A stretch of DNA of 61,944 bases from Clostridia bacterium. Lineage in GTDB: Bacteria; Bacillota; Peptococcia; Peptococcales; BICA1-8. The position numbers were made by a program, and so were the translations under genes. The DNA is taken from contig JASKKI010000005.1 of assembly GCA_030154225.1 (NCBI GenBank), positions 1 through 61,944 of the forward strand. The letters are read 5' to 3'. The stretch's first letter is position 1. Each line of letters opens with the position of its first letter. Below the pieces are notes generated by a model. The model did no database searches and was not told the origin of the DNA. It saw only the letters and a program-made list of their open reading frames with translations. Below, piece by piece: positions 4,081-20,078 of the stretch.

Positions 4081-4105
4081 GTATCCGGTATTATCCGGAT
4101 ACTTT
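4081..4105 (+). terminator. hairpin terminator
   Basis: GTATCCGG-tattat-CCGGATAC followed by TTT. Confidence 0.45.
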
Positions 4106-4273
4106 ACACAAATTTTAAATTTCTAGATAACTATTTTAAAGGAATAAGCTAAAATAATACATTAAAATTTTAAAGTTTACTTCCTTGACCTTTTTTGTCT
4201 CCAATCTCAAAATTTCGGAATATGTTATTAATGAGAGATATAAGTATTTATCACCTTAGAAAGGAGGCAGAAC

Positions 4274-4840
4274 ATGCCAGTTGGAGATAATGTGGTTTTA
4301 AATGGATATACAATAACCCTGGCGAATATTGATAATAGTAACTGCCCAAACTCACAAACCTGGACCTATACAGTTGTAAGAACTGCTACCCTTGAAAATG
4401 CAATAAGATTTTGGAGCCTCGGCCTAGAACATGAACCACCATTTATCATTCTAGATACCGATAACATGACAAACATAGGTATGGCAGATGTAGACTTTTC
4501 AGACCCGGTTTGTTTAGATTCTCTACCACCTACGAGGCCTGTTATTAAATGGGATATTCCACAACCTACCGACCTATTTGTTACCGGAACATTTTCCTTT
4601 ACACTACAAGGATGTTTTGGTGAACAGCAGAGGGATGTTGCCTTAAATGCCGGAGGTACATGTTTCTTCGGGCAAATAACAGGACCTAGCTGTCAACCAC
4701 TAACTACAACTACTACAAATAATGGAACTACAACTACTACAACATCGACAACCACTACAACTACTACAACTACTACAACATCGACAACCACTACCACAAC
4801 TACCACGACAAGACCTGTTAGAGGAGTTGCTATTTTCTAA
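4274..4840 (+). CDS. Thr-rich (putative O-glycosylated) surface protein ending in ...RPVRGVAIF
   Basis: GAAAGGAGG RBS. 188 aa: a globular Cys-containing N-domain, then about 40 residues that are almost all Thr, then a short C-terminal motif. Confidence 0.7.
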   Translation: MPVGDNVVLNGYTITLANIDNSNCPNSQTWTYTVVRTATLENAIRFWSLGLEHEPPFIILDTDNMTNIGMADVDFSDPVCLDSLPPTRPVIKWDIPQPTDLFVTGTFSFTLQGCFGEQQRDVALNAGGTCFFGQITGPSCQPLTTTTTNNGTTTTTTSTTTTTTTTTTTSTTTTTTTTTRPVRGVAIF

Positions 4841-4850
4841 AAAAGCTAAA

Positions 4851-4888
4851 AGAAGTCTAGGTGTCATAACCACCTAGACTTCTTTTTT
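4851..4888 (+). terminator. intrinsic terminator
   Basis: 13-bp stem AGAAGTCTAGGTG/CACCTAGACTTCT followed by TTTTT. Confidence 0.85.
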
Positions 4889-4983
4889 CACATTTGTCAT
4901 AAGTTATTAACTACATTTATAAAAATTAATAAAACAGAACTATTACTATGAACTATTAACTTAAAAATGTTTAAGGAGGATCC

Positions 4984-6273: not shown

Positions 6274-6306
6274 AAATATTCTGGGTATCAACCCAGAATA
6301 TTTTTA
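6272..6306. terminator. bidirectional terminator between convergent genes
   Basis: 12-bp stem AATATTCTGGGT/ACCCAGAATATT flanked by A- and T-runs. Confidence 0.8.
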
Positions 6307-6504
6307 TGTTTCTCTAATCCATTCCCTAATTTCATCATATGTTCCTAAATCTCTATAAGATCCCGTAGAGAAACAATAACAATATACTTTTTTCTCTTTA
6401 ATCAAGCCTGTAAGAGCATCAGTTAAAACTATCTCTCTTTTTCCATTACTTACTTTGCTTATTAGCGAGAATGAATTTTTGGATTTCTTCAAATTTTCTA
6501 GCAA
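6304..6504 (-). pseudogene. possible C-terminal remnant of a sugar-nucleotidyltransferase
   Basis: The ORF has no RBS and overlaps the 3' end of the GT2 gene in another frame. The segment KKVYCYCFSTGSYRDLGTYDEI resembles the ...V.GY...G.W.DIGT.ED... C-terminus of NTP-transferases. Confidence 0.3.
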
Positions 6505-6955
6505 AGTTTTCTATTTCTTGTATGGAATCAAATCTGATCCCAACATTTTGCGATCCCGTAGCATAAGAAAGAAATGGTACAGCTACACCAACGGAATAAT
6601 CATTTTGTAAAATTTTAGCTATGCCATCAAACCAACCTTCTGGAAAAATTAAATCGTTATTCATAACAGTAATGGTATTCCCTCTACTTTCGGCAAGCCC
6701 AACATTTAAGCCTATTGTATAGCCCATATTTTCATTCAACCGGATATTAATAATTTCGATAGGCCCAGGAGTATACATTTTTATTAATTCTTCAATAGCA
6801 ACACTTGTTTCATCTGTGGACCCATTATCGACAATAATTAGTTCAATCCCTTTTGATTTATATGATGCGCCCAAGGATTTAATTAAAGAAGTAATTGCTT
6901 GTTGAGAGAGATGCCAATTATTGTAACACACCATAATAAAACTAAAATAAGGCAT
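6446..6955 (-). CDS. family 2 glycosyltransferase, apparently truncated (169 aa)
   Basis: N-terminus FSFIMVCYNN...IIVDNGSTDET...NNDLIF is a classic GT2 GT-A fold. The protein stops before the usual C-terminal acceptor region. Confidence 0.65.
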   Translation of the reverse strand: MPYFSFIMVCYNNWHLSQQAITSLIKSLGASYKSKGIELIIVDNGSTDETSVAIEELIKMYTPGPIEIINIRLNENMGYTIGLNVGLAESRGNTITVMNNDLIFPEGWFDGIAKILQNDYSVGVAVPFLSYATGSQNVGIRFDSIQEIENFARKFEEIQKFILANKQSK

Positions 6956-6958
6956 TTT

Positions 6959-7564
6959 TTATTCGCTCCCTTTAAATTTAAGTGAATCCAGCCACCACAG
7001 AGCGAGGGATTTATCAGCATAGGGCTTTTCTTTAATAATGTAAAGTGGTTTAGGAAAAATAAAAGGCTCTTTTTGTAAGTTTAAATGACGCCAATCTCCT
7101 GTTTTAATATCTTTATTAGTTGGATGTTCCGTAAAAGTAGTTGTTAAAAGATATTTAGAAGAGCTTCTTTTAAAATTATTTAATGTCTGCCAAATATTCT
7201 GGAAGGAAAAATGAACTAAACAATCTCGACAAATAATTAAATCCACTGCTGGCAAAGGCTCACTGGTAATATCTAAATAAAGAAACTTTCTTTGGTGATT
7301 TGAGTAATAATGGTTGTTCTTTTCAATCAGCTCTGACACAATATCAACACCAAAGTATTGTTCTATATCCAGGTTAACAAGTTTCATCCAATTAAAATCT
7401 CCACAAGGGGCATCTAAAACTGTTTTTATATGAAAACTTTTAATTAATATTGGAAGTTTCTTGATAATTTCTTCTGTTGCCTCAACACTTGAACCAGGTC
7501 CCGAAACTGATTCTGTTCCTCCCCACATGTTGCCTTCATATATTTGCTGAAAAATATCTTTCAA
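6959..7564 (-). CDS. class I SAM-dependent methyltransferase
   Basis: Motif I VLDAPCGDFNWM and an N-terminal SGPGSS motif. The stop lies 3 nt before the GT2 start, suggesting an operon. Confidence 0.7.
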   Translation of the reverse strand: MKDIFQQIYEGNMWGGTESVSGPGSSVEATEEIIKKLPILIKSFHIKTVLDAPCGDFNWMKLVNLDIEQYFGVDIVSELIEKNNHYYSNHQRKFLYLDITSEPLPAVDLIICRDCLVHFSFQNIWQTLNNFKRSSSKYLLTTTFTEHPTNKDIKTGDWRHLNLQKEPFIFPKPLYIIKEKPYADKSLALWWLDSLKFKGSE

Positions 7565-7676
7565 TCTAAGATCAACCCTTCGTCTTAATTTGTATTTCTA
7601 TTTCTAATATATGACTTAAATGTCAGAAATGCTTATTACAGTATTCAAGACATAAATACCCTAGTCTAAGTTTAAG

Positions 7677-7710
7677 GCAAAAATTAACCACCCGCAAAGG
7701 GGGTGGTTAA
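7677..7710 (-). terminator. intrinsic terminator after the C11 peptidase gene
   Basis: Stem TTAACCACCC/GGGTGGTTAA with runs on both sides. Confidence 0.8.
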
Positions 7711-7714
7711 TTTT

Positions 7715-8968
7715 TTATCTTAATTTAAAATTAGTATGCTGTTCCCATTTTTTATACTCCAGTAACCTCCGAACAATTTTTTCCAACTGTTCTTGTTCGG
7801 CATTAGGATTCATTATAGATATTAGGGTTACCAGGGCCTGAAATGGTAAAATTGTAGGTTTCAATTGCCTACCTTCTTCTAAAGTTCTACTTTCTTCCCA
7901 AAATAACTTTCCTAACAATTTAGGCCAGTGATTATTGTTAGCAAAGCCTAATTTTAAATAACATACTGCCAGTTTATTACCTGTAGTTTTATGGGCAATA
8001 TCTATTAGATTACTTTTAAAATTTGTAATCCTCTGAGAATAAATGATTAATGATAACAAACTTTTTTTTAAATCTTTTACATATGATAACAAGGGGTCCG
8101 AGCCATCATTAATTTCTAATAATTGGGAAAGATTTATAGTACTTCTCTGTTCAGTTTTTAATAATAATTGTGCTAAGTCATTTGCTGTTCTTTTGATTTT
8201 TTCCAGTTTTTTGTAATTTATGTTAAATGCTACTAGATCCAGGTTTATTCCTTCAATTATATTTTTAACTAAAAGGTTTAGATCAACTAAGTTATGGTTT
8301 TTTTCAACAATACTAATTAATTTATCAAGGGGGAGACCAGCAATAGGTCCATATTCAATATAGGTAAGAACATTTTTTACCGTATGGCTTTTCTCTTTCG
8401 CTAATTCGTATAGTATTTCAACCATATTCATATAACAGGTATCTAAAACTAATAAGTCTATACCTATCCCCTTAGTTTTTTGCACTAAACTTAGTGCTTT
8501 ACACATCTCGGGAATGCCCATTATATAAGGAAGATTTTGACTGTAATCTGTTAATGTTCCTAAATACTCGAAACTATGGCCACCTAATATTAGCATAAAT
8601 TTTTTTGCCGGATAATTTTCCATCCCCCAGGTAATAAATTCATACAGAACTTTAGGATCTGCCATATTCTGAAAACCCAAATCTTTAATTACTGGAGAAG
8701 ACAAATTTTCACGGGAATTACCTGTATTTTTTGTAACATAGTATCTTCTTACACCTGTCCATGTATCACCGGTATCAGTAAGAACATCTGATGGTCTAAG
8801 TATTTTGGCTAAAGTCCTTTCCATTCTACCCAATTGAACTAGAACATTAACACTTTTACTGGAACCTATTTTTTCTGCCGCCAAGACCGATTGATACATC
8901 TCTGGCTCGAATTCATTATTCCCATTGGCATAAATAAGGATAGTCCAACTTTTCTTAACATCTCTCAA
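7715..8968 (-). CDS. clostripain-like cysteine peptidase (family C11)
   Basis: N-terminus WTILIYANGNNEFE. Candidate His (LILGGHSFE) and Cys (LVLDTCYMN) dyad in the usual order. Confidence 0.7.
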   Translation of the reverse strand: MRDVKKSWTILIYANGNNEFEPEMYQSVLAAEKIGSSKSVNVLVQLGRMERTLAKILRPSDVLTDTGDTWTGVRRYYVTKNTGNSRENLSSPVIKDLGFQNMADPKVLYEFITWGMENYPAKKFMLILGGHSFEYLGTLTDYSQNLPYIMGIPEMCKALSLVQKTKGIGIDLLVLDTCYMNMVEILYELAKEKSHTVKNVLTYIEYGPIAGLPLDKLISIVEKNHNLVDLNLLVKNIIEGINLDLVAFNINYKKLEKIKRTANDLAQLLLKTEQRSTINLSQLLEINDGSDPLLSYVKDLKKSLLSLIIYSQRITNFKSNLIDIAHKTTGNKLAVCYLKLGFANNNHWPKLLGKLFWEESRTLEEGRQLKPTILPFQALVTLISIMNPNAEQEQLEKIVRRLLEYKKWEQHTNFKLR

Positions 8969-9266: not shown

Positions 9267-9710
9267 CTATTGAGCAACAATTTTTTTTAGAATTTTTACA
9301 TCTGTTTCTAATTTATCAAGTCTTTCATTGGTTTTAGTTTTAAACTCTAACAAACCTGCTGTTTCCTCAAAAATACTATCCACCTTACGTTGTAGCTCTA
9401 TTATAACAGTTTTTAGTTCTCTTTGTCCTTTTTCTAATTCGGCTTGTCCTTTTTCAAGTTTGGTCAATACATTTTCTAATTCGTCTTGCCGTTTTTCCAA
9501 ATTTGTCAGCCGTTTTTCCAAATTAGTCTGCCCATTTTCCAAATTTGTCAGCCGTTTTTCTAAATTAGCCTGCCCATTTTCCAAATTTGTCAGCCGTTTT
9601 TCTAAATTAGCCTGCCCATTTTCCAAATTAGCCTGCCCTTTTTCTAAGCTTTCAAGTTTATCTAAAATCTGTAGGAGTATTTTTTCACTCAAATCTATTA
9701 CCTCCTCCAT
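9267..9710 (-). CDS. coiled-coil repeat protein (LEKRLTNLENGQAN repeats)
   Basis: GGAGG RBS, 147 aa. The N-terminus resembles the partial gene at 1..148. The central part is built from 14-aa repeats. Confidence 0.7.
   Translation of the reverse strand: MEEVIDLSEKILLQILDKLESLEKGQANLENGQANLEKRLTNLENGQANLEKRLTNLENGQTNLEKRLTNLEKRQDELENVLTKLEKGQAELEKGQRELKTVIIELQRKVDSIFEETAGLLEFKTKTNERLDKLETDVKILKKIVAQ
9497..9645. repeat. 42-bp tandem repeat, 3 near-perfect copies plus a partial copy
   Basis: Units at 9497-9538, 9539-9580 and 9581-9622 (ccaaatttgtcagccgtttttctaaattagcctgcccatttt). The last two are identical. Confidence 0.9.
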
Positions 9711-9927: not shown

Positions 9928-9954
9928 ACATTTTATAAACCTTTTCATAAAATA
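9928..9954 (+). promoter_or_regulatory. mother-cell-type (sigma-K-like) promoter
   Basis: tCACATTTTAT-N-CATAAAATA: AC, 16 nt, then CATAnnnTA. Confidence 0.45.
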
Positions 9955-10006: not shown

Positions 10007-10666
10007 ATGCCCCGTTATAGAAAAATCAGTCCTGTTAATATTGAAGAATTTAAAAAGATTGCTAGTGAAAAAAAGCATCTCATAAATGATAGTAACCTGG
10101 GGGAAAAAGAAAATGTTACGAACAATTACCAGGAAGCCGAGAGAAATAATAATTCTTTATTTAAAAGAAAAAAACCATTGAGAAAGACTAGTCAAAACCG
10201 GAGTATTCAGGAAATTGTTTCATCCACCTGTGGTAATCTTAGAGGATTATGCGGAAATATCCGCGCATTTGCTGATAATTTAGATAATTTGCTCAATTCT
10301 GTAGAAACATTAGTACCTGTGGTTAATACACTAGCAAGCGAATATTCCCGCTCTTTTAAATATTTACAAGAAAAACAAAAAGAAACTGAAAATACGAATT
10401 CTACTAATAATAACAGTGAGGAAATTGATAATAATACTGACCAGACTATTGTTAATAACACTAATGAAAATACCGAGTCAGACTCAAAGATTCCCTCTTC
10501 CAATGTAAATAGTAATATTAATAATCAAGATAATATTAATTTAAACCGGAAACAAAATTATACTCCTAAAATGCCATCAGAGGCGGAGCTAAAACAGTTT
10601 TTAAATAATCCTTTAGTTAAGTCATTAATGCAAGCTCTTCTCCAGCAGATGAAACCACAGAAGTAA
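10007..10666 (+). CDS. Asn-rich hypothetical protein (putative late sporulation protein)
   Basis: AAAGGAG RBS, 219 aa. Shares the motif N.R.F.D....LL.SVE..P with 12501..12761. Confidence 0.65.
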   Translation: MPRYRKISPVNIEEFKKIASEKKHLINDSNLGEKENVTNNYQEAERNNNSLFKRKKPLRKTSQNRSIQEIVSSTCGNLRGLCGNIRAFADNLDNLLNSVETLVPVVNTLASEYSRSFKYLQEKQKETENTNSTNNNSEEIDNNTDQTIVNNTNENTESDSKIPSSNVNSNINNQDNINLNRKQNYTPKMPSEAELKQFLNNPLVKSLMQALLQQMKPQK

Positions 10667-10670: not shown

Positions 10671-10700
10671 TAAAAAAATAGCCCTGGTCGGGCTATTTTT
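10671..10700. terminator. bidirectional terminator
   Basis: TAGCCC-tggtc-GGGCTA flanked by A7 and T6. Confidence 0.75.
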
Positions 10701-10894
10701 TATGGTTGTATTCCCATGCTAGTAGCTATTTTTTGCATTAGTTGTTCCAATTTTTCTTTATTCTCACCTTTACTTTCAATTTCATATATAATCTTTTTAA
10801 TAACCGTACGATTTTCCTCCGGGAGAAGGGCTTCGAATTTTTCAGCTAAAGCTTTGAGCTCTTCAAAGGATTTGGGGAATTTAAATTCATTCAT
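10700..10894 (-). CDS. small helical protein, paralogue of 10927..11136
   Basis: ATG at 10894 lies 8 nt after GGAGG. The sequence ...PKSFEELKALAEKFEALLPEENRTVIKKIIYEIESKG aligns with its neighbour. Confidence 0.6.
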   Translation of the reverse strand: MNEFKFPKSFEELKALAEKFEALLPEENRTVIKKIIYEIESKGENKEKLEQLMQKIATSMGIQP

Positions 10895-10926
10895 GGTTTC
10901 TACCTCCGGCATCTAATATCAACAAT

Positions 10927-11136
10927 TTATTTAAAATTCATCCCGAGTTTACTAATTAAATTTGTAATCAACTGCTCTATATGCTCTTTATCGACATTTT
11001 TCCCTTTAGCTTCAATTTCAGCTAAAATTTCTCTAATTATTTTGCGATTTTCTTCTGGCAAAAAAACTTCAAATTGTTCAAATAATGCTTTAATATCTTC
11101 AAAAGACCTTGGGGGCTGAAACCCATTCATATTCAT
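10927..11136 (-). CDS. small helical protein, paralogue of 10700..10894
   Basis: GGAGG RBS. Sequence ...PRSFEDIKALFEQFEVFLPEENRKIIREILAEIEAKG. Confidence 0.6.
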   Translation of the reverse strand: MNMNGFQPPRSFEDIKALFEQFEVFLPEENRKIIREILAEIEAKGKNVDKEHIEQLITNLISKLGMNFK

Positions 11137-11168: not shown

Positions 11169-11477
11169 CTAATTCGCAGGTCCTAAAGACCTTGTATAAA
11201 GAATACGGTATTCTTCTTCGGGTTTTTCAGTTGCAGAAGCTTCCAGGATAAGTTTTGTTTCAAGAGCACTTTCTTTTTTACCTAAAGATCTGGTATAAAG
11301 GACTCGCATTTCTTTATTAGCCTCCCCATCTTTCACTTTCGCCTTCTTATTAGATCCTAAAAGAGCCAATAATCCTGGTTTACCGGGATTAGAGAAAAAA
11401 TACCGAACAAAATAGAGGACGATAATTATAAGAATTAAGCTAAAAACCTGATTGTTCTTATAAAAATCCCTAATCAT
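11169..11477 (-). CDS. membrane-anchored protein with internal (V/I)LYTRSLG repeat
   Basis: AGGAGGGGAG RBS, N-terminal TM helix, and two copies of R(V/I)LYTRSLG about 35 aa apart. Confidence 0.6.
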   Translation of the reverse strand: MIRDFYKNNQVFSLILIIIVLYFVRYFFSNPGKPGLLALLGSNKKAKVKDGEANKEMRVLYTRSLGKKESALETKLILEASATEKPEEEYRILYTRSLGPAN

Positions 11478-11630
11478 TTAGATACTCCCCTCCTTTTCTC
11501 CTTATAAGTCAATTTATAATATGTCGCTCAGCCTTATTTGTGATAGATACTTTTTAAAAAAATATTTTTACTAACACTAGCCACCAGCAACTAATATCTT
11601 ATTTTTGAAATAGGGTAAAAATGTATTGTG

Positions 11631-11658
11631 ACACAAAACATGTAGTATTCATATTATG
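11631..11658 (+). promoter_or_regulatory. mother-cell-type promoter candidate for peptide gene P1
   Basis: ACAC-N15-17-CATATTATG. The -10 element is a near match. Confidence 0.35.
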
Positions 11659-11707
11659 TTAGTGTGAAGAATCTTTTAATTATTTGATTAGCGAGGGGGC
11701 TTTAATA

Positions 11708-11845
11708 ATGACTGATAATATTGCTGGCAATCCTGGTTTTGGAACATTCTTTACAAATCCATTTTTCGTGAATCTTTTGCAAGTGATTATCATTTATTTC
11801 CTTTTAATGTGGTTGTTCGGATTCCCATTTGGCTTTGCTTACTAA
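11708..11845 (+). CDS. tiny hydrophobic peptide P1 (45 aa), subfamily A
   Basis: GAGGGGG RBS. Sequence MTDNIAGNPGFGTFFTNPFFVNLLQVIIIYFLLMWLFGFPFGFAY. Paralogous to P2 and P3. Confidence 0.7.
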   Translation: MTDNIAGNPGFGTFFTNPFFVNLLQVIIIYFLLMWLFGFPFGFAY

Positions 11846-11865
11846 AATCAAGTGCATACTTATGG

Positions 11866-11905
11866 AAGGGTAAAGCTGAATGGCTTCAGTTTTACCCTTG
11901 CTCTT
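11866..11905 (+). terminator. hairpin after P1
   Basis: AAGGGTAAAGCTGAA/TTCAGTTTTACCCTT with a weak T-run. The stem sequence recurs after P3 and P8. Confidence 0.45.
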
Positions 11906-11945
11906 ATGCATAGACTAAAAAAAAGTAACTGAAAGGAGGAAAATC

Positions 11946-12464
11946 ATGCCCGAATTCAATGAAAGCAGGCCTTACAAAGGTGAAAATAACACGAATGAAA
12001 ATTTAGAAAATAATCTTGAAGAAATTGATTCTCTAGGAGAGGAAACTATAGAAGAAAGTGAAACTTCGTATATTACAAAATCCGAATGGGAAGATCATAG
12101 ACCAGTGAACCCCTTGGATCAAATGGTTTTAGGTATTAAAAACTTTGTAATAAATTTACCAAAATTCCTTTTTCCAGCCCCACCACCTAATTCTCCAAAT
12201 AAACCGGTAAAAATTTTGCTAAAACCCCCTATCAGTCCTGGCAAGAAACCCGGTCCAATTTTACCAAAATTTCCTGTCATTCCCAGTAAAAAACCAGATG
12301 TGTTTTTACCCAAGCCAGCTTCAAAAACTATTACTGCCCCTGTAGGTTTAGGTGGTTATAGCGGAATATTTAACAATTTCTGGTTCGTAACTCTCCTACA
12401 GGTTATTATCATTTTATTCTTTATATTATGGCTCTTTAGTTTTACACGTCCGTACAAATTTTAG
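11946..12464 (+). CDS. acidic/Pro-rich protein carrying the subfamily-A hydrophobic module at its C-terminus
   Basis: AAAGGAGGAAAA RBS, 172 aa. The C-terminus GGYSGIFNNFWFVTLLQVIIILFFILWLFSF aligns with P1-P4. Confidence 0.7.
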   Translation: MPEFNESRPYKGENNTNENLENNLEEIDSLGEETIEESETSYITKSEWEDHRPVNPLDQMVLGIKNFVINLPKFLFPAPPPNSPNKPVKILLKPPISPGKKPGPILPKFPVIPSKKPDVFLPKPASKTITAPVGLGGYSGIFNNFWFVTLLQVIIILFFILWLFSFTRPYKF

Positions 12465-12500
12465 TTTAATATATCCCCAGCAAAAGAGAGGAGGATTAAA

Positions 12501-12761
12501 GTGTCTCAAACTGGAGAAGGAGATGTTCTGCAAAACAAACCAACTCCTAATTTTAAACAGTCCAAAGCAGAAAATTATAGTATTTCAGCTCCTATAATTC
12601 AAACAGTATCTAGCATTAAAGAATTTACCAATAATGTACGTACATTTGTCGATAGTTTTGAACAATTACTAGACTCTGTTGAAAATTTTGCACCATCATT
12701 GGAAAAGGTAGCTAAGGGGACCAGTCAGCTTACCAGAAAGCTAAGACCCCCGGGACGGTGA
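12501..12761 (+). CDS. small hydrophilic protein sharing a motif with 10007..10666
   Basis: GTG start 7 nt after GAGGAGGA. Carries the motif NNVRTFVDSFEQLLDSVENFAP. Confidence 0.55.
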   Translation: MSQTGEGDVLQNKPTPNFKQSKAENYSISAPIIQTVSSIKEFTNNVRTFVDSFEQLLDSVENFAPSLEKVAKGTSQLTRKLRPPGR

Positions 12762-12797
12762 TAAAAACCATTCTTGAAAGTTAAATGCTAACTTCGC

Positions 12798-12824
12798 ACA
12801 TTTTATGTGATTTCACATAGGATA
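12798..12824 (+). promoter_or_regulatory. mother-cell-type (sigma-K-like) promoter for P2
   Basis: gCACATTTTAT-N-CATAGGATA. Confidence 0.45.
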
Positions 12825-12867
12825 TAATGTGATTTAAAACGTTGCACAAGAAGGGGGGTTCTTTAAA

Positions 12868-13008
12868 ATGGCCGATAAAGTTGCCGGTGTAGATGGTTTG
12901 TTCGGAAGTTTCTTTACAAATCCTTTTTTTGTGAATCTTCTACAGGTGATTATCATTTACTTCCTCTTAATGTGGCTCTTTGGTTTCCCATTCGGTTATG
13001 CCTATTAA
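12868..13008 (+). CDS. tiny hydrophobic peptide P2 (46 aa), subfamily A
   Basis: AAGGGGGG RBS. Sequence MADKVAGVDGLFGSFFTNPFFVNLLQVIIIYFLLMWLFGFPFGYAY. Confidence 0.75.
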   Translation: MADKVAGVDGLFGSFFTNPFFVNLLQVIIIYFLLMWLFGFPFGYAY

Positions 13009-13024
13009 ATGAAAAATAAGTAGC

Positions 13025-13050
13025 ACATTTAAATCAAATTTCATAAGATA
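13025..13050 (+). promoter_or_regulatory. mother-cell-type (sigma-K-like) promoter for P3
   Basis: gCACATTTAAA-N-CATAAGATA. Confidence 0.45.
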
Positions 13051-13089
13051 TTTTGCAGAAAAATTTTAAAATTGAAAGGGGGCTTTTTA

Positions 13090-13230
13090 ATGGCTGACAA
13101 AGTTGCTGGTGTAGATGGTTTATTCGGAAGTTTCTTTACAAATCCATTCTTTGTAAACCTTCTACAAGTGATAATCATCTATTTCCTCTTAATGTGGCTC
13201 TTTGGTTTCCCATTTTACGGTTACTGTTAA
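13090..13230 (+). CDS. tiny hydrophobic peptide P3 (46 aa), subfamily A
   Basis: AAAGGGGG RBS. Sequence MADKVAGVDGLFGSFFTNPFFVNLLQVIIIYFLLMWLFGFPFYGYC. There are 13 differences from P2 in codons 1-42 and all are synonymous. Confidence 0.75.
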   Translation: MADKVAGVDGLFGSFFTNPFFVNLLQVIIIYFLLMWLFGFPFYGYC

Positions 13231-13249
13231 AGTTCCGAGATAATTATGA

Positions 13250-13283
13250 GGGTAAAGCTGGTATATCCTGCTTTACCTTTTTA
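13250..13283 (+). terminator. intrinsic terminator after P3
   Basis: GGTAAAGC...GCTTTACC followed by TTTTT. Confidence 0.7.
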
Positions 13284-13334
13284 TAATTAATAGGACCATT
13301 TGTTCATTATCCATTTTTAATAAAATCATATATC

Positions 13335-13361
13335 ACATTTAATTAATTTTTTCATACCATA
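13335..13361 (+). promoter_or_regulatory. mother-cell-type promoter for P4-P5
   Basis: tCACATTTAAT-N-CATACCATA. Confidence 0.45.
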
Positions 13362-13416
13362 TAGTACGAAAGTACGAAAAAATTAATTAAATAACATTGA
13401 AGGGAGGACTTTATTG

Positions 13417-13563
13417 ATGACTGAAGCAACAGAAACAAATGTTAGCGGATTTGGATTTGGTTTTGGTACTCCATTTTTCTGGTTTATAACTCTTCTTCAG
13501 GTGGTAGTAATTCTATTCCTTCTTTGCTGGTTGTTTAGTGTATGTTTCTATGGTTATTATTAA
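13417..13563 (+). CDS. tiny hydrophobic peptide P4 (48 aa), divergent subfamily A
   Basis: GAAGGGAGGA RBS. Sequence MTEATETNVSGFGFGFGTPFFWFITLLQVVVILFLLCWLFSVCFYGYY. Confidence 0.65.
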   Translation: MTEATETNVSGFGFGFGTPFFWFITLLQVVVILFLLCWLFSVCFYGYY

Positions 13564-13623
13564 ACTTTTAATTTATTGTATTTAGTTAAATAATCAAAGT
13601 AAAATTGAAAGGTGGAAAATCTA

Positions 13624-13740
13624 ATGACTGATAATACTGCTGGTCAATATGGCTATGGTTTTGGTTATTACTGGTGGATCTGGATAATTATCATTGGGAT
13701 AATTGTTTTCTTTTTCTTTTGTAGACCCTATTATTATTAA
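13624..13740 (+). CDS. tiny hydrophobic peptide P5 (38 aa), subfamily B
   Basis: AAAGGTGGAAAA RBS. Sequence MTDNTAGQYGYGFGYYWWIWIIIIGIIVFFFFCRPYYY. No promoter lies between P4 and P5. Confidence 0.7.
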   Translation: MTDNTAGQYGYGFGYYWWIWIIIIGIIVFFFFCRPYYY

Positions 13741-13764
13741 TATTCAAGTTTAAGCCAATAATTA

Positions 13765-13808
13765 AGCGGTAATAGTTGGTATTTTTATACTAACTTTACC
13801 GCTTTTTA
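13765..13808 (+). terminator. intrinsic terminator after P5
   Basis: AGCGGTAA...TTACCGCT followed by TTTTT. Confidence 0.7.
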
Positions 13809-13829
13809 ATTATATTGATTAGCTACTGA

Positions 13830-13857
13830 ACAGTTTTCTAATTATATTCATAAAATA
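13830..13857 (+). promoter_or_regulatory. mother-cell-type promoter for P6
   Basis: AC, 17 nt, then CATAAAATA. Confidence 0.4.
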
Positions 13858-13905
13858 TTAATGTAAGGGGCTATCAAAATCAATAACCGAAAGGGGGTTA
13901 AATTA

Positions 13906-14022
13906 ATGGCTGACACCGTTGACCAATATGGATATGGCTATGGCTTTGGTAATTGGTGGTGGATCTGGATAATTATCATCGCGATAATTATCATCTTCTG
14001 CTTCTCCCGACCCTATTATTAA
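13906..14022 (+). CDS. tiny hydrophobic peptide P6 (38 aa), subfamily B
   Basis: AAAGGGGG RBS. Sequence MADTVDQYGYGYGFGNWWWIWIIIIAIIIIFCFSRPYY. Confidence 0.7.
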   Translation: MADTVDQYGYGYGFGNWWWIWIIIIAIIIIFCFSRPYY

Positions 14023-14042
14023 AATAAATAGATAATATCCTG

Positions 14043-14087
14043 AAGCGGCAAAGTTGGTTTTCTAAACCCTCCTTGTCGCTTTTTTTA
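14043..14087 (+). terminator. intrinsic terminator after P6
   Basis: Imperfect stem AGCGGCAAAG/CCTTGTCGCT followed by T7. Confidence 0.55.
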
Positions 14088-14111
14088 ATTAAAAGTTTTG
14101 GTATTTAAGGA

Positions 14112-14138
14112 ACACTCTTAATTACTTTTCATACTATG
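14112..14138 (+). promoter_or_regulatory. mother-cell-type promoter candidate for P7
   Basis: ACAC-N-CATACTATG. The -10 element is also sigma-E-like. Confidence 0.35.
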
Positions 14139-14177
14139 TAATGTAAAAAAACATTACTAAAGAAAGGGGTTTGTTAA

Positions 14178-14309
14178 ATGGCTGATAATACTGCTGGTCA
14201 ATATGGTTATGGTTTTGGTTATTACTGGTGGATCTGGATAATTATCATTGCGGTAATTATTTTCTTCTTCTGCTTTAGAGGGTGTGGCTTTGGCCCTTGC
14301 AATGTTTAG
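14178..14309 (+). CDS. tiny hydrophobic peptide P7 (43 aa), subfamily B with Cys/Gly tail
   Basis: AAAGGGG RBS. Sequence MADNTAGQYGYGFGYYWWIWIIIIAVIIFFFCFRGCGFGPCNV. Confidence 0.7.
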   Translation: MADNTAGQYGYGFGYYWWIWIIIIAVIIFFFCFRGCGFGPCNV

Positions 14310-14351
14310 AGCTTTAAAAAATCAACCTCAAACTTATCTAATCAACTAAAC

Positions 14352-14378
14352 ACATTTTAAAAGTATTTTCATAAGATA
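14352..14378 (+). promoter_or_regulatory. mother-cell-type (sigma-K-like) promoter for P8
   Basis: aCACATTTTAA-N-CATAAGATA. Confidence 0.45.
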
Positions 14379-14426
14379 TTAATGGGAGAAAAACCTCAGG
14401 CTAATAGTGAAAGGAGGCTTAAAAAA

Positions 14427-14552
14427 ATGGCTGATAAAGTTGCAGGTGTAGATGGATATGGTTTTGGCTTTGGCGGCATTTGGCTAGTTTGGGTAGCTTT
14501 TATTGCCTTGTTAATCTTCCTCTTCTGTGGATTTGGGTTTTTCCCATACTAA
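14427..14552 (+). CDS. tiny hydrophobic peptide P8 (41 aa), A/B hybrid
   Basis: AAAGGAGG RBS. Sequence MADKVAGVDGYGFGFGGIWLVWVAFIALLIFLFCGFGFFPY. Confidence 0.7.
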   Translation: MADKVAGVDGYGFGFGGIWLVWVAFIALLIFLFCGFGFFPY

Positions 14553-14569
14553 AGTTCAGTCTCTGAAAA

Positions 14570-14611
14570 AGGGTAAAGCAGGTAATTCATACCAGCTTTA
14601 CCCCTTTTTTT
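14570..14611 (+). terminator. intrinsic terminator closing the peptide array
   Basis: GGGTAAAGC...GCTTTACCC followed by T8. Confidence 0.8.
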
Positions 14612-14685
14612 AAATTAAAAATTATTCTTTTTTCTCTCAACCTTAGCCTTAACCTCAACCTTAAAACCGGCGTAGCCAGTTTTCC

Positions 14686-15045
14686 TTAGTCATTGATAAC
14701 TAATTTTGCGCTTTGCAGATCATCAACAATGGTAAATATCTGATCTAGTTTAGCAAAACCAATGATCTTTTTAACATAGTCGGTCATTCCAACATAAACA
14801 ATTTTCCCCTGTTGTTGATTAATATATTTAAATAAAGCTATGAGCATCCCCAGCCCCGAAGAATCTAATAACGGTACCTGAGAAAGATCTATTATTAACT
14901 GATTAGTATTGCATTTAACCAGTTCTTCTTTAATTTTTTCTTTTAATTCATTGGATTGTAATAAATTCACTTCACCTACCAGTGTTACTTGTAAAATTCC
15001 TTCTTCAAAATTTAATACTAATTCTGCCATTCTCATTAACCTCAC
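14686..15045 (-). CDS. STAS-domain anti-sigma-factor antagonist (SpoIIAA/RsbV-like)
   Basis: Motif LDSSGLGMLIALFK and matching overall length. The true start is probably the ATG at 15030 or 15036, after GTGAGG. Confidence 0.7.
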   Translation of the reverse strand: MRLMRMAELVLNFEEGILQVTLVGEVNLLQSNELKEKIKEELVKCNTNQLIIDLSQVPLLDSSGLGMLIALFKYINQQQGKIVYVGMTDYVKKIIGFAKLDQIFTIVDDLQSAKLVIND

Positions 15046-15193: not shown

Positions 15194-15412
15194 CTACATA
15201 TTTCTCCAGAATTTTAAGTACTTTACAAGAAACTCTATCCCTTTTATCGGACTGGGTATTTTAATACCTATTACTTGTAAAAAACTTAAGATAAATGCTA
15301 ATAATAATAAAATCAAAAAAAATATAAGTTCACGCCAGTATTTTCTTTGAATAAGACCAGGCACTTCAAATAAAGCTATACCGATAAAAGCTATAATTAA
15401 CAAAATTTTCAT
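15194..15412 (-). CDS. small two-TM membrane protein
   Basis: ATG at 15412 after GGAGAAGGAAA. Sequence MKILLIIAFIGIALFEV... Confidence 0.5.
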   Translation of the reverse strand: MKILLIIAFIGIALFEVPGLIQRKYWRELIFFLILLLLAFILSFLQVIGIKIPSPIKGIEFLVKYLKFWRNM

Positions 15413-15470
15413 TTTCCTTCTCCTTTGTACGTATAATCTGATTGAGGCATCCACTATAAGGTCTAGCTTA

Positions 15471-15652
15471 AATGATGCATCAGACTGAGTAGCTTAAAGT
15501 AGATACATTTCTAAAGCTTAACTTTCACCGGATGCATCATGCTGAATAACCCATAAGGAAATGCGTCCTTTAAGTTTACGGTCATCGGATGCAGACCCAC
15601 AATCTTCAGCCAGAAGTAATTGTCAGACGCACAAGCTTGACCCTTAAATATT
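15471..15652. repeat. array of about 6 degenerate 29-32-bp units (GTCWGAC-type core ... CTTnAC ... TAAGTA)
   Basis: Read by eye. The best unit is ttgtcagacgcacaagcttgacccttaaata (core 15622-15628), and weaker units lie upstream of it at about 30-bp steps. Confidence 0.55.
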
Positions 15653-16774
15653 ATCAACGGAATCCTGCTTCCTGTTTCCTTTTTCCTCCTCCTGTTTCGG
15701 TATCCCCCGTATAATTGCAATAATTAGAGAAAGCAGGGGAAATCCAACTTCAAAAGGAAGGCTGTAATAAGGGTAGATTTCAAAGGCAAAAAAGATATTT
15801 TCAATAACACTATCAAACTGCAGGATACTTAAGCTAACCATAAGAACACCAACGGGAAATACCAGGGGTAAATAAGAACGTAAATTTAATAACTGGGCTA
15901 AACCCAAGACCGTTGCATAATAACAAACAGAAATTTTCAAAAAACCCATCGTTAATAGATTAACGGCTACTATAATTTCCAGCCTTGTTAATATTTTTGC
16001 TATTTTTATTAAACGTATAACTTGATAAGAAGGATAAACATGGATGCCTTCAGTAACTCCGAGGACGGCTGTATTACGTAACAAAGATAGTACCAGAAGC
16101 AAACCAGCAACAATTAAAGCCGTTAGGGTAGAAATTTTGGCTTGTTTAACATTATCTAAAAAGGCAATAACCATTAGAAAAACCACTGTTTCCCCAAAGG
16201 GAAAGGTAGCCGCAGAATGACTGGCTTTAATAAACTCCTTTAAGGGAAGGTCAAGGACAGGTAATAAGTTAGTAAACTTCATATCCTGCGCCAGTAAAAT
16301 TATAGTGCCCAGTACAGAAAAAACCGTAAATACTACCAATATTAAACTACACCGGGTTATTACTTCTATCCCGTTGCGTACCGCTGAAGCACAAACTAAG
16401 GTAGTGAGAATAATAAATACCGCTATCGGAGTCTCCGGGTAGATCATACTTGTTAAAAAATCGCCAAAATTTCTTAAAACTAAACTGCCGAGATGGAAAA
16501 AAAACCACAGGTACCCCAGGGAAATGACCTTGCCTAAATAAGGACCAAAGATAATATCATTGTACTGTACTAAGGTTTTGCCAGGAAAGCGCATAGCCAG
16601 GGTTAAATAAATAAGAGTAAAGACCAGGCCTTCACCCAATCCGACAAGAACAGCGAGCCAGGCATCATGTTTGGCAGCCATCCCGGGCGAGAGAATTAAG
16701 CTTGACCCTAATATAAAACCAACTATTAAAAAGGTTAAATGAGAACTGGATATTTTACCACCTTCAAGCTTCAC
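15644..16774 (-). CDS. spore germination protein, GerAB/GerKB (permease-like) family
   Basis: GTG start after GGGAGGGAGG. About 10 TM segments. Adjacent to GerC- and GerA-family genes. Confidence 0.8.
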   Translation of the reverse strand: MKLEGGKISSSHLTFLIVGFILGSSLILSPGMAAKHDAWLAVLVGLGEGLVFTLIYLTLAMRFPGKTLVQYNDIIFGPYLGKVISLGYLWFFFHLGSLVLRNFGDFLTSMIYPETPIAVFIILTTLVCASAVRNGIEVITRCSLILVVFTVFSVLGTIILLAQDMKFTNLLPVLDLPLKEFIKASHSAATFPFGETVVFLMVIAFLDNVKQAKISTLTALIVAGLLLVLSLLRNTAVLGVTEGIHVYPSYQVIRLIKIAKILTRLEIIVAVNLLTMGFLKISVCYYATVLGLAQLLNLRSYLPLVFPVGVLMVSLSILQFDSVIENIFFAFEIYPYYSLPFEVGFPLLSLIIAIIRGIPKQEEEKGNRKQDSVDNI

Positions 16775-16854
16775 AAAGATCCTCCCTCCCTGGCATTTTC
16801 TACTATAGGGTTATTTTTTGGAACAGCACAAAAGTTTATAGGTTTAGCTAACTG

Positions 16855-17082
16855 GTCAGCCTACAGCTTATAAGTTATTTCTTTGGTCAGACAATACTAC
16901 CAGGTTAATTTTGGGGTCTGACAAATAATCTCGCCCTTTAGCTAATGTCTGACTAACTATGTTCATCTAAAAGTAATTGTCAGACGCTCAAGCTTAACCA
17001 TTAACTATTGTCCTTCCAATGAACTTGACCCATAAGCAGTTGTCTGACACAATTGCTTAACCCTAAAGCCATTATGTCCTCA
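16855..17082. repeat. phased array of 7-8 units, period 30-32 bp, core GTCWGAC
   Basis: Cores at 16855 (GTCAGCC), 16886, 16916, 16947, 16979, 17010 (GTCCTTC) and 17042. Confidence 0.75.
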
Positions 17083-18252
17083 TTCCGGCTTAGCCGGCTT
17101 AGTGATCATACCAGACCGTCGTAATTTTGCTTTGACAATTACCGTCACTTCCAGGCTTGGAAAAAAATCATCCCATTGGCTTTCTATATATTTCCATAAT
17201 TTGGGATATTTCCTGTGGACAGCATCACCAAAACCAAAAATATCTGTGTTCCATTCCTGGGCCTTTTTTAATGCAGCCATTACTTCCTTACGGATAACAA
17301 CAGCTTTCCGTCTTTCTATAGACATCCAGACTTCAGGTTTTGATAAATCTACTGAACACATTTCTTCACCCAAATTTCCTTCTTCATTGATTTCCACCTT
17401 AATATGTAAGGTATCATCCTTTATTTCGGGGGTAATTTTACTGTTGGCCCGGATAATTTCCAGACTGGCTTTACCCTTACCATTGGGACAATCTACAACA
17501 ATAATACCGCTTTTCACTTCACCAATAACCCATTGTAGGCCCCGGGTTTCTTCCCTGCCCAAAAAACCAGCCAGTTTATCCTTTTTAAAAACTGCCGTTC
17601 CCATAAGTAGAGCTGTTTTTTCTTTACCTACTACTTCAATAAGAGAGGCTATAGGTGCAGTGGTTTTGCTCATCAAACGGTTCATAAACTCCTGTAGATT
17701 AACTGCACTTGATTCCGAGGTAGCATCCCGGACTTCAATTAACTGGGAAATACTTATTGCCGGTATTTGTTCTAATTCTGTTTTAGACTCTAAAATTTCA
17801 CTTGCTTTACCTTTACTAACCAGAACATAAATCAGGCGGCGCAGTTCGTGGTCGCGGATAATAAAATCCATATATTTTTGTATCCCTTCTTTAGCAATAT
17901 CCTCGCTAAAGATGACTATTTCATTATGGGGTAAAAAAAGCCTCCGGTTAGACTTATGGGTAAGAGCTCTTATTGTCTCAAAAACAGTATTCCCTGTCTC
18001 TGTCAGATTCCAGTAAGGTCTTTCAGCTCTTCCACCGTCTCCGGCTCCACCTGCAGCGGCGATGGATAAATTCCCCGGTTTAAGAATTTGGGCTGTTAGT
18101 TGTATTTTCTCGGATTCCTCCGCTTTGTCAATGGCAAGACCGGATACAATAGCTAGATTATCCAGCTCCCTACGGTTCCAGCAACCAGCAATGCTCAGTA
18201 GTACCATTAAAAGAATTAATAGTTTTATAAAAAAGCGACCGACTTTCATCAT
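17080..18252 (-). CDS. spore germination lipoprotein, Ger(x)C family
   Basis: Lipobox LSIAGC followed by WNRRELDNLAIVSGLAIDK. ATG at 18252 after GAGGGG. Confidence 0.85.
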   Translation of the reverse strand: MMKVGRFFIKLLILLMVLLSIAGCWNRRELDNLAIVSGLAIDKAEESEKIQLTAQILKPGNLSIAAAGGAGDGGRAERPYWNLTETGNTVFETIRALTHKSNRRLFLPHNEIVIFSEDIAKEGIQKYMDFIIRDHELRRLIYVLVSKGKASEILESKTELEQIPAISISQLIEVRDATSESSAVNLQEFMNRLMSKTTAPIASLIEVVGKEKTALLMGTAVFKKDKLAGFLGREETRGLQWVIGEVKSGIIVVDCPNGKGKASLEIIRANSKITPEIKDDTLHIKVEINEEGNLGEEMCSVDLSKPEVWMSIERRKAVVIRKEVMAALKKAQEWNTDIFGFGDAVHRKYPKLWKYIESQWDDFFPSLEVTVIVKAKLRRSGMITKPAKPE

Positions 18253-18287
18253 TTTCACCCCTCTTATAACTTATGGGTTAATTTTTT

Positions 18288-18380
18288 GTCAGACCCTCAA
18301 GCTTTAACCTTTAAGTATGTCAGACCAGCGATGTTCACACTTAAGTACGTCTGACCAATAAACTTTCACCCTCAAGTATC
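18288..18380. repeat. phased array of 3 units, period 30-31 bp, core GTCWGAC
   Basis: Cores at 18288, 18319 and 18349, each preceded by TTAAGTA. Confidence 0.7.
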
Positions 18381-20078
18381 TTTATTGCCGATTTTCCGCG
18401 GTCGTTTAAGCCCCTGCACCCCCGTCTGTGATTTCATATTACTGTTATTTTCCGGTTCACCTTGTGGCTGTTCCACTTTTTCACTATCCTGCGGTGGCGC
18501 TGGTATTTGTCTAAATTCCTGCCGCTGGGGATCATGCCAGCCGATAGTCCTGGGGCGGGTAAACATAGCCCAAATAGGTAATCTAATAAATACGTCTTTT
18601 AGATCCCTAAAACTTAAGGGAGCCAAAGGTGAAAAATAGGGAGTTCCAAAAGACCTTAAAGTACATAAATGAATTAATCCTGCCAGTAAAATAATTATAA
18701 TGCCAAAAGCCCCCAAAGCTCCGGCAGAAATAGTTATAATAACACGTCCAAGGGCCGCAGTATCAGACTGGGCCGGAACCACAAAAGAAGAAATAGCGGT
18801 AAGAGCTACTACAATAACCACAGGAGCACCAATAAGTCCCGCGGATACGGCTGCCTCACCGATTACCAGTGCTCCTACAATACTTATAGCTGAACCAACA
18901 GGGCGGGGCAGCCGGATTCCAGCTTCCCGAAGAATTTCATATACAATTCCCATGACAATAGCTTCAACTACCGCCGGAAAGGGGGTCCCTTCCCTGGCTG
19001 CAGCCATGGTGATTAGTAAGGGAGTGGGAATAAATTCCTGATGAAAAGTTGTTAAAGCAACATAAACTCCCGGAGCCAGAATGGTTATAAAAAAGGATAT
19101 AAATCTAAGGGTTCGAAGAATACTGGTATAAAAAGGTCGGGAATAATAGTCTTCAGATGTTTGAAAACTCTCTATAAAAACCATTGGGACCGTAAGTACC
19201 ATAGGAGTACCGTCAACCAGGATGGCTACCCGCCCTTCTAAAAGTTTTCCAGCAATAACATCGGGTTTTTCACTGTTAGCAATGGTAGCAAAGGGAGAAA
19301 AAGGAGCATCTTCAATAAACTGCTCAATATAACCCGATTCCAGGATGGCATCGGTATTAATTTTTTTTAGACGGTACTTGACCTCCTCTACAAGCTTGGG
19401 ATTGACTACTCCTTTTAAATAAGCGATACAAATATCGGTTTTGGTCCTTTGACCTAATTGCATATTTTCCAGGATAAAATCTGGATTGCGAATTTTACGA
19501 CGTAACAGACTGGTATTGGAACGTAAAGTTTCGGTAAAACCTTCCCGGGGCCCCCGTACTACAGCTTCTGTTTTAGGTTCTTGAATACCCCGGGATTCCC
19601 AACCCCGGGAACTGATAACCAGGGCCTGATCGGAACCATTTATTAATAAAACTGTATCTCCAGATAAACAACCATCAATTACATCATCAAGGGAAGTAAC
19701 TATTTTTACATCTCCTACCGAGAGCATGGATTTTTGGATAATATCAATATTATTAGTAGTAAGTAATTCTCTGGAATCAAATAAGTGGGTATCATACATT
19801 AAAGGCTTGATTATGCTTTCATTAATAGTCATTCTATCTGTTAATCCATCTACAAAGATAATAGAGGCATTAATTTTCTCATCATAACCAAAGCTGAATT
19901 CACGGATAACAATATCATTACTTGTACCTAAAATACTTTTTAAAACTTTCAGGTTCTCCTTAAGATCACGGGAAAGGCTAGTTTGAGAAGATTTTTGCCA
20001 GTTGCCATTCTGTTTACCAGAATTTCGTTGATTGAGTAGCTGCCAAAATTGCAATTTCTTAAATAGAAAACCAAACAT
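18372..20078 (-). CDS. spore germination protein, GerA/GerKA family
   Basis: Conserved VDGTPMVLTVPMVFIESFQTSEDYY and C-terminal TM segments. 568 aa. Confidence 0.85.
   Translation of the reverse strand: MFGFLFKKLQFWQLLNQRNSGKQNGNWQKSSQTSLSRDLKENLKVLKSILGTSNDIVIREFSFGYDEKINASIIFVDGLTDRMTINESIIKPLMYDTHLFDSRELLTTNNIDIIQKSMLSVGDVKIVTSLDDVIDGCLSGDTVLLINGSDQALVISSRGWESRGIQEPKTEAVVRGPREGFTETLRSNTSLLRRKIRNPDFILENMQLGQRTKTDICIAYLKGVVNPKLVEEVKYRLKKINTDAILESGYIEQFIEDAPFSPFATIANSEKPDVIAGKLLEGRVAILVDGTPMVLTVPMVFIESFQTSEDYYSRPFYTSILRTLRFISFFITILAPGVYVALTTFHQEFIPTPLLITMAAAREGTPFPAVVEAIVMGIVYEILREAGIRLPRPVGSAISIVGALVIGEAAVSAGLIGAPVVIVVALTAISSFVVPAQSDTAALGRVIITISAGALGAFGIIIILLAGLIHLCTLRSFGTPYFSPLAPLSFRDLKDVFIRLPIWAMFTRPRTIGWHDPQRQEFRQIPAPPQDSEKVEQPQGEPENNSNMKSQTGVQGLKRPRKIGNKDT

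Follow-up and report, generated by a model that had tools for sequence, protein, structure and literature searches.

We analysed a stretch of 61,944 nucleotides (nt) of contig JASKKI010000005.1 from a Clostridia bacterium (assembly GCA_030154225.1), referred to here as the window. A tandem array of nine genes on its plus strand encodes tiny, extremely hydrophobic single-helix proteins of a lineage-specific family that is undescribed and unnamed. Eight of the genes (P1 to P8) are short open reading frames (ORFs) of 38-48 amino acids (aa), which had been proposed in an initial annotation of this DNA and whose coordinates and translations all proved correct. The ninth, overlooked at that stage, is a long form that ends in the same kind of hydrophobic module. 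A search of the window with an unfiltered hidden Markov model (HMM) of the family found no member outside the array. The initial annotation considered the array invisible to its list of ORFs; with gene callers this holds for five of the short ORFs, which are uncalled in the public record of the contig, and not for P2, P3 and P4, which are called there. It also credited every ATG with a strong Shine-Dalgarno sequence, and we found a G-rich one in front of all eight, with a spacing that we read as 7-9 nt (GAGGGGG, AAGGGGGG, AAAGGGGG, GGGAGG, AGGTGG, AGGGGG, AGGGG and AGGAGG).

The peptides had been described as sharing one plan, in which a head rich in Gly and aromatic residues is followed by a single, very hydrophobic helix and by a short tail of aromatic or Cys residues, and both hydropathy analysis and AlphaFold2 modelling agree with this description. 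In each peptide the best 19-residue Kyte-Doolittle window reaches a mean of 2.26-2.75 and is followed by just 4-8 residues to the C-terminus. Aromatic residues make up 28-39% of each peptide, and charged residues number 1-3 per peptide. AlphaFold2, given P2 with the family alignment, predicted one helix at residues 19-37, with a predicted local distance difference test (pLDDT) score of ~80-88 for the block, low-confidence ends and an overall pLDDT of 68.7. Judged by sequence, the array peptides have the layout of tail-anchored membrane proteins: they are without a signal peptide, their sole helix stands at the extreme C-terminus, and the long form is alike in both respects.

Alignment of the family members refuted the proposed division into two subfamilies with P8 as a hybrid. 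There are three conserved subfamilies besides the long form, and P8 is an ordinary member of subfamily C, which is present in every related array. The subfamilies are told apart by their cores, FFxTLL(Q/M)VIIIxxLLxWLFGF in A, WWIWIII in B and WLVWVAxIALxIyxFC in C, and the head M-[AT]-D-[NK]-[VT]-A-G-Q-[FY]-G is common to all members. Profiles of A, B and C are mutually related (hhalign probability 95-99%, E 1e-8 to 1e-16), a link that comes mainly from this common head. The long form consists of an acidic N-terminus, a Pro/Lys-rich linker and an A-type hydrophobic module at the extreme C-terminus, where it ends in GIFNNFWFVTLLQVIIILFFILWLFSFTRPYKF; comparable long forms are found in other genomes (P0019, P0020, L018, L019, L021 and L022).

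The A-type cores, compared across the window, L001-L023 and P0009-P0020, occur in two states: 16 of 24 distinct cores carry E...M...R/K, seven carry V/T/I/A...Q...C/M and one is intermediate. A compensated charge pair between packed helices is possible for the E...R/K states, yet the states coincide with two clades. We therefore rejected E/M/R versus V/Q/C as an instance of covariation, since the two states follow the two clades and the signal is phylogenetically confounded.

As judged from codon-level comparison and from conservation between loci, the array genes are real coding sequences under purifying selection. P2 and P3, singled out at the start for their silent divergence, differ at exactly 13 of their first 42 codons and every change is synonymous (non-synonymous rate, dN, 0; synonymous rate, dS, 0.81); the 60-nt flanks upstream of the two genes are merely 40% identical. 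Across lineages the median pairwise dN/dS is 0.21 for A, 0.23 for B and 0.18 for C, so that dN lies well below dS, at a median ratio of ~0.2. The peptides and their reading frames are kept in at least 12 non-redundant loci of other genomes.

Relatives of the array peptides are few. With the family profile as query, a word-indexed search returned only four foreign proteins out of 5.8 billion, and among 1.84 billion cluster representatives HMMER, run exhaustively, gave 15 matches at E <= 1e-3, three long forms among them. Those cluster members that have a name are all called 'hypothetical protein' and come from assembled uncultured genomes. Scanning GTDB with one genome per species yielded ten loci in six assembled genomes, labelled Clostridiaceae bacterium BRH_c20a, Peptococcaceae, Peptococcales, Clostridia and Bacillota bacterium. 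Clostridia genomes at large, where the initial annotation had suggested looking for relatives, are thus too broad a frame, as the family was found only in uncultured BRH_c20a/Peptococcales-like genomes. Nor is an eight-copy array unusual, as had been supposed: in the fetched loci, searched with the unfiltered family HMM, every lineage has arrays of 5-10 members, usually A then B then C, so that such arrays are the rule in this clade. Related arrays occupy the same chromosomal position. Scans of all the peptides, the long form and the small neighbouring protein O86 against Pfam and NCBIfam at E up to 10 produced only transmembrane noise from unrelated families, and a sequence search of the PDB with the family profile gave 0 matches at E up to 1.

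To characterize the control of the array we searched for the sigma-K-type motif AC-N15-17-CATAnnnT[A/G], a consensus that was defined in Bacillus. The motif stands 39-55 nt before the ATG of seven of the eight short genes, P5 being the one without it, and at P8 it is so placed that the ATG farther upstream, at 14382, cannot be the start codon. Over the 62-kb window, both strands taken together, there are 18 matches versus ~12 expected from a first-order Markov model, while the plus strand of the 3-kb array alone holds seven distinct sites versus ~0.3 expected (Poisson estimate ~3e-8). The same motif precedes two neighbouring genes, the divergent 102-aa gene on the minus strand and the 219-aa ORF on the plus strand. 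Of 70 family ORFs in 12 other loci, about half are preceded by the motif at no more than 150 nt, the distance to the ATG being 38-58 nt in nearly all cases, and most of the ORFs that are without it sit immediately downstream of others in operons. The 33 sites collected also agree at positions outside the search pattern, with A at -3 in 30 of them, a run of T in front of CATA and no base other than A or C behind AC. A scan for sigma-70 promoters showed no enrichment (18 found, 20.1 expected). Known sigma-K regulon genes elsewhere in the window would have served as a positive control of the motif search, and we found none, the genes there being solely those for housekeeping, nif and menaquinone functions.

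Promoters of sigma-K and sigma-E in B. subtilis are reported to have a common -10 element and to be distinguished by the -35 element, where sigma-K sites have C and sigma-E sites T; the DNA-recognition residues are conserved across endospore formers (Eichenberger et al., PMC517825). All seven promoters of the window have C in the -35 element, which favours sigma-K over sigma-E; both factors act in the mother cell. The initial annotation had placed the expression of these genes late in the mother cell, and the occurrence of the motif at a fixed distance from seven of eight genes, and in relatives, makes such timing likely.

A 21-nt palindrome, 95% complementary, lies at P4 (13337-13357 and 13372-13392). 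Its first arm overlaps the P4 promoter motif and its second arm falls in the 5' untranslated region, and it may be a regulator-binding site.

RNA folding bore out the hairpins reported after P1, P3, P5, P6 and P8, which have z-scores of -3.9 to -6.1 at energies between -17 and -30 kcal/mol and were equalled by 0 of 200 shuffles, and it detected no hairpin downstream of P2 and P7. P2 and P7 have no terminators and read into P3 and P8, which have promoters of their own as well. The GGGTAAAGC/GCTTTACCC stem recurs behind P1, P3 and P8, as had been pointed out, and on inspection the tail after the P1 stem is indeed poor in T. The P1 hairpin is probably leaky, letting transcription run on into the long form. 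P5, which has no promoter motif and begins 60 nt behind P4, is probably co-transcribed with P4 as a bicistronic unit. A generic terminator scan returned 0 sites, the stems and loops of the array exceeding its limits, and the hairpins are those demonstrated by folding.

Features of the peptide array and its partner genes (positions refer to the window)
Feature	Position	Strand	Description
P1	11708-11845	+	45 aa, subfamily A; family HMM E 6e-25
Long form, ninth member	11946-12464	+	172 aa; A-type module, family HMM E 2e-12 on residues 135-172
P2	12868-13008	+	46 aa, subfamily A
P3	13090-13230	+	46 aa, subfamily A
P4	13417-13563	+	48 aa, divergent subfamily A
P5	13624-13740	+	38 aa, subfamily B; 60 nt behind P4; no promoter motif of its own
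P6	13906-14022	+	38 aa, subfamily B
P7	14178-14309	+	43 aa, subfamily B, Cys/Gly tail
P8	14427-14552	+	41 aa, subfamily C
Hairpin after P1	11866-11899	+	-29.9 kcal/mol, z -6.1; weak T tail
Terminator hairpin after P3	13250-13282	+	-23.7 kcal/mol, z -4.8
Terminator hairpin after P5	13757-13811	+	-25.3 kcal/mol, z -5.4
Terminator hairpin and T-run after P6	14042-14082	+	-17.4 kcal/mol, z -3.9
Terminator hairpin and T-run after P8, array end	14566-14608	+	-21.3 kcal/mol, z -5.0
Sigma-K-type motif, P1	11631-11658	+	ACACAAAACATGTAGTATTCATATTATG; -10 ends 49 nt before ATG
Sigma-K-type motif, P2	12798-12824	+	43 nt to ATG
Sigma-K-type motif, P3	13025-13050	+	39 nt to ATG
Sigma-K-type motif, P4	13335-13361	+	55 nt to ATG
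Sigma-K-type motif, P6	13830-13857	+	48 nt to ATG
Sigma-K-type motif, P7	14112-14138	+	39 nt to ATG
Sigma-K-type motif, P8	14352-14378	+	48 nt to ATG
O86	12501-12761	+	86 aa, conserved SFEQLLDSVENFAP domain; behind the long form here and in other genomes
orf219	10007-10666	+	219 aa; shares the O86 domain; sigma-K-type motif 9928-9954 (+); conserved beside the array
LYTRSLG protein	11169-11477	-	102 aa, N-terminal hydrophobic helix; sigma-K-type motif 11515-11541 (-)
LPEENR paralogues	10700-10912 and 10927-11136	-	~70 aa each, tandem, 50% identical

The array belongs to a conserved block made up of a clostripain-like C11 peptidase gene, orf219, one or more LPEENR protein genes, the divergent gene of the LYTRSLG membrane protein, the array itself, an orphan STAS gene, the gerA operon, a small ORF and a DUF3842 gene. 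A test of synteny had been proposed in the initial annotation, and it showed that the block recurs in L001, L002, L014 and L020-L023. O86 and orf219 have in common a lineage-specific domain of ~49 aa, N-x-R-x-F-x-D-x-x-x-x-L-L-x-S-V-E, and the word-indexed search of 5.8 billion proteins returned only one foreign protein for O86. Within one L002 protein this domain is duplicated. The LYTRSLG protein carries two copies of (Y/V)(R)(I/V)LYTRSLG, its relatives carry two or three, and its gene is always divergent from the array; both the gene and its promoter motif are conserved in L001, L002 and L013. The LPEENR proteins, which have a conserved SFEELK...LPEENR motif, are encoded downstream of the 102-aa gene and beside the array in all main loci. 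No Pfam or NCBIfam family was found for the LPEENR and LYTRSLG proteins, orf219, orf188 or the 86-aa ORF on the minus strand.

Several genomes have a second block, in which the long form and O86 have as neighbours orf188 and the genes of a BNR-repeat protein and a GT1 glycosyltransferase; our window has homologues of these three neighbours 8 kb upstream. Here they form part of a stretch (1889-8968) that encodes a BNR-repeat protein with a coiled-coil tail, orf188, GT1 and GT2 glycosyltransferases, a methyltransferase and a C11 peptidase without a signal peptide. These are probably spore-surface or glycosylation genes, and parts of the stretch are syntenic with the long form and O86 in other genomes. 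Between the C11 peptidase gene and orf219 lies a gene (9267-9710, minus strand) for a 147-aa coiled-coil protein with 14-residue tandem repeats, LTNLENGQANLEKR. In UBA3933-like genomes the interval between the BNR protein gene and orf219, which holds enzyme genes in the window, is occupied by thirteen consecutive small genes of 51-117 aa with 0 Pfam matches (L002 5379-8220, and L003-L007).

On the other side of the array, the orphan STAS gene (14686-15045, minus strand), which encodes a SpoIIAA-like anti-sigma antagonist, is convergent with the array and ~70% identical across lineages, and neither an anti-sigma kinase gene nor a sigma factor gene is adjacent to it. The genes gerAA-gerAC-gerAB and the 86-aa ORF next to them (15194-20078, minus strand) are inverted relative to L001, L002, L014, L022 and L023, in which both the operon and the ORF are co-directional with the peptide array. 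Farther away, at 49451-52650 and 24683-25639, are NifH-type and nitrogenase component 1-type genes and an Mrr-type restriction endonuclease gene, which are unrelated to the array.

Together, the data make it highly probable that the array encodes real, selected, single-helix sporulation micro-proteins. Concerning their role, we favour on balance the reading that they are abundant micro-proteins of tail-anchored type, produced late in the mother cell and built into the outer envelope of the spore, as analogues of the YjcZ peptides of Bacillus; a structural role in that envelope, taken by itself, we propose only tentatively. The genes would be switched on late in sporulation, in the mother cell, where the multiple cassettes would provide a high gene dosage and hence abundant product. 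The peptides would then insert post-translationally, in tail-anchored fashion, with the N-terminal head remaining in the mother-cell cytoplasm; that the head stays on the side of synthesis is suggested by the long form, whose charged N-domain of ~130 residues has no signal peptide. The target would be a membrane accessible to proteins in the mother-cell cytoplasm, with the outer forespore membrane as the likeliest candidate. In it, helices of the A, B and C types would pack into homo- or hetero-oligomers, and the Gly/Tyr/Phe heads and Cys/Tyr tails would be free to touch the coat and outer layers or to become linked to them through dityrosine or disulfide bonds, the O86, orf219, LYTRSLG and LPEENR proteins being incorporated alongside the peptides.

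A more specific version of this proposal, which we consider distinctly improbable, is that A, B and C peptides, the long form and the proteins with the O86/orf219 domain co-assemble in the outer spore membrane into a dedicated, protein-rich structure, either a hydrophobic shell or a lattice of channels. If so, they would constitute a new layer of the spore envelope that could set surface hydrophobicity or control how germinants pass to the GerA receptor, whose genes adjoin the array, and the E...R/K pair in A helices and the mostly kept order of A, B and C would reflect specific helix-helix packing. In gating germinants, such a layer would do what GerP proteins do in the coats of Bacillus.

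Several observations weigh against an envelope role under late mother-cell control. Sigma-E and sigma-K sites differ by one base, and the assignment made here is a match to the Bacillus consensus. The motifs of P1 and P6 resemble sigma-70 sites as well, that of P1 overlapping a sigma-70-like GTGACA-18-TATTAT, and the first array genes in some relatives keep the -10 element with a deviant -35 element. Late in sporulation the coat may already cover the outer forespore membrane, in which case the mother-cell membrane is an equally reachable target. The E and R/K residues within the hydrophobic stretch of many A cores are unusual for a plain transmembrane helix. The partner proteins match no family of known function in Pfam or NCBIfam, the conserved gene order may merely reflect a narrow clade, and the organism is known solely as a genome assembled from uncultured material.

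The closest look-alikes of the array peptides are the proteins of the YjcZ/tiny_TM_bacill family (PF09680, TIGR01732) of Bacillaceae, and the initial annotation had recognized a YjcZ-like plan with a different core. We examined the alternative that the array peptides are highly diverged true homologues of YjcZ, a Clostridia-side branch of one ancient family. The two groups have the same plan of <50 aa, in which a head rich in Gly and Tyr precedes a single hydrophobic helix and a short Gly/Tyr/Cys tail; both are multi-copy and partly tandem in spore formers (PMC8313275), and yjcZ is sigma-K-controlled (PMC517825). For comparison we assembled a YjcZ reference set; all 120 matches listed carry PF09680, many of them being named 'YjcZ family sporulation protein', and 51 were aligned. 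An HMM of these 51 proteins, run with filters off on 56 peptides of the array family, gave at most 4.7 bits, a value below the maximum of composition-matched shuffles (10.1 bits), whereas true YjcZ members scored 44.7-72.5 bits. In the reverse direction the HMM of subfamily C reached 13 bits on a YjcZ protein. Comparison of alignments by hhalign gave a probability of 35% for C, with 22 columns in register (GYG...hydrophobic start), and only 14% for B and 2% for A, which as a whole is noise level. At E up to 10, neither the eight peptides nor the long form had a match to PF09680 or TIGR01732, and the exhaustive profile search described above yielded no YjcZ protein. The invariant YjcZ core F-A-L-x-V-V-L-F-I-L-L-I-I-x-G, and even its first part, F-A-L-x-V-V-L-F-I-L-L-I, is absent from the A, B and C cores, and the family-defining head MADNVAGQ is not present in YjcZ. 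By these profile and core comparisons the array family is not a member of YjcZ, the resemblance being one of architecture, copy number, host type and probable regulation, and we regard common descent with YjcZ as improbable.

Other functions would be compatible with small, very hydrophobic single-helix peptides. They could be membrane-permeabilising peptides, holin-like or type I toxin-like, that serve in mother-cell lysis and spore release, or they could be factors of addiction or killing; promoters of the late mother-cell type would suit the timing of mother-cell lysis, and the mother-cell membrane is within reach. Holins and type I toxins typically have a charged C-terminal tail, whereas the tails of the array peptides are aromatic, Cys and Gly residues, with the few charges per peptide given above. 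No lysin gene is adjacent. The PHROGs scan gave nothing meaningful and no phage protein family match, and none of 281 pattern stretches matched in 2.9 million viral contigs was confirmed as a relative. Antisense promoter-like sites are not enriched, and an Rfam scan of 10.5-15.5 kb found no RNA family, only sub-threshold chance matches to viral and eukaryotic models. Nine cassettes in three subfamilies of mostly kept order, with a conserved long form, point rather to an abundant multi-component structure, and we consider a lytic or toxic function distinctly improbable. That the peptides are precursors of secreted bacteriocins or of ribosomally synthesised modified peptides, in which the head would be a leader and maturation would fall to the C11 peptidase, the methyltransferase or the glycosyltransferases, is very improbable. 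Several small ORFs in tandem, whose products share an N-terminal motif and have tails rich in Cys, would suit such a system, as would the clostripain-like peptidase, methyltransferase and glycosyltransferase genes within 7 kb, of which the peptidase gene is syntenic in several relatives. However, the peptides have no double-glycine leader, the hydrophobic core, and not just a leader, is their most conserved part, and their promoters are of sporulation type. The loci are also without a C39-ABC exporter, radical-SAM, lanthipeptide, cyclodehydratase or immunity gene; in the L002 lineage the enzyme genes are not adjacent, and the nearby enzymes are not kept in all lineages. Finally, short and compositionally biased ORFs, several of them uncalled in the public record, might be chance frames in AT-rich intergenic DNA or shadows of another feature. 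This idea has a negligible probability and is refuted by dN/dS values far under 1 and by frames kept in at least 12 foreign loci, each with its own Shine-Dalgarno sequence, promoter motif and terminator; for a shadow, the non-synonymous changes would fall on antisense ORFs.

Micro-proteins of <50 aa are systematically missed, as illustrated by the five of eight left uncalled in the public record here. The locus can serve as a marker of the uncultured BRH-c20a clade and supplies putative sigma-K promoters for it; this clade has been discussed as a CO2-reducing acetogen in bioelectrochemical systems (PMC12980525). The head motif, the subfamilies, the long form and the partner genes are handles for experiments. 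The literature that we searched names YjcZ-type peptides as members of regulons and in lists of annotations but holds no study of their function, and to our knowledge none has been assigned to these tiny sporulation membrane peptides in twenty years. That a second, independent family follows the same plan and has the same promoter type suggests that late, abundant single-helix peptides are a recurrent component of spore envelopes and not an oddity of Bacillus. Features of the array that are not described for YjcZ are the co-occurrence of three subfamilies, the conserved head, the long form of tail-anchored layout and the conserved set of partners.

Compared with known systems, the array peptides resemble bacterial tail-anchored proteins as a class, with no implication of homology, in having no signal peptide and one hydrophobic helix near the C-terminus; the short forms differ from them in having almost no cytoplasmic domain, just a head of 15-20 residues. 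SpoVM and CmpA of Bacillus subtilis are mother-cell micro-proteins of 26-37 aa that act at the interface of the outer forespore membrane and the coat, and scans of the array peptides against Pfam and NCBIfam revealed no sequence similarity to either. SpoVM has an amphipathic helix that lies on the membrane surface, and it is single-copy and early (sigma-E). The array peptides, in contrast, have a fully hydrophobic helix of 19-22 residues, are multi-copy and carry sigma-K-type promoter motifs. The likeness to YjcZ lies in restriction to endospore formers and in the presence of several paralogues: YjcZ has several copies per genome, some of them adjacent (PMC8313275), and the array stands beside a gerA operon, with nine copies here and 5-10 in relatives. 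It may extend to regulation: B. subtilis yjcZ is a member of the sigma-K regulon (PMC517825), and seven of the eight short array genes carry the sigma-K-type consensus motif. Unlike YjcZ, the array family has the MADNVAGQ(F/Y)G head, three subfamilies usually ordered A, B, C and a long tail-anchored form, and it is accompanied by conserved partner genes at a conserved chromosomal position in uncultured BRH_c20a/Peptococcales-like genomes and not in Bacilli.

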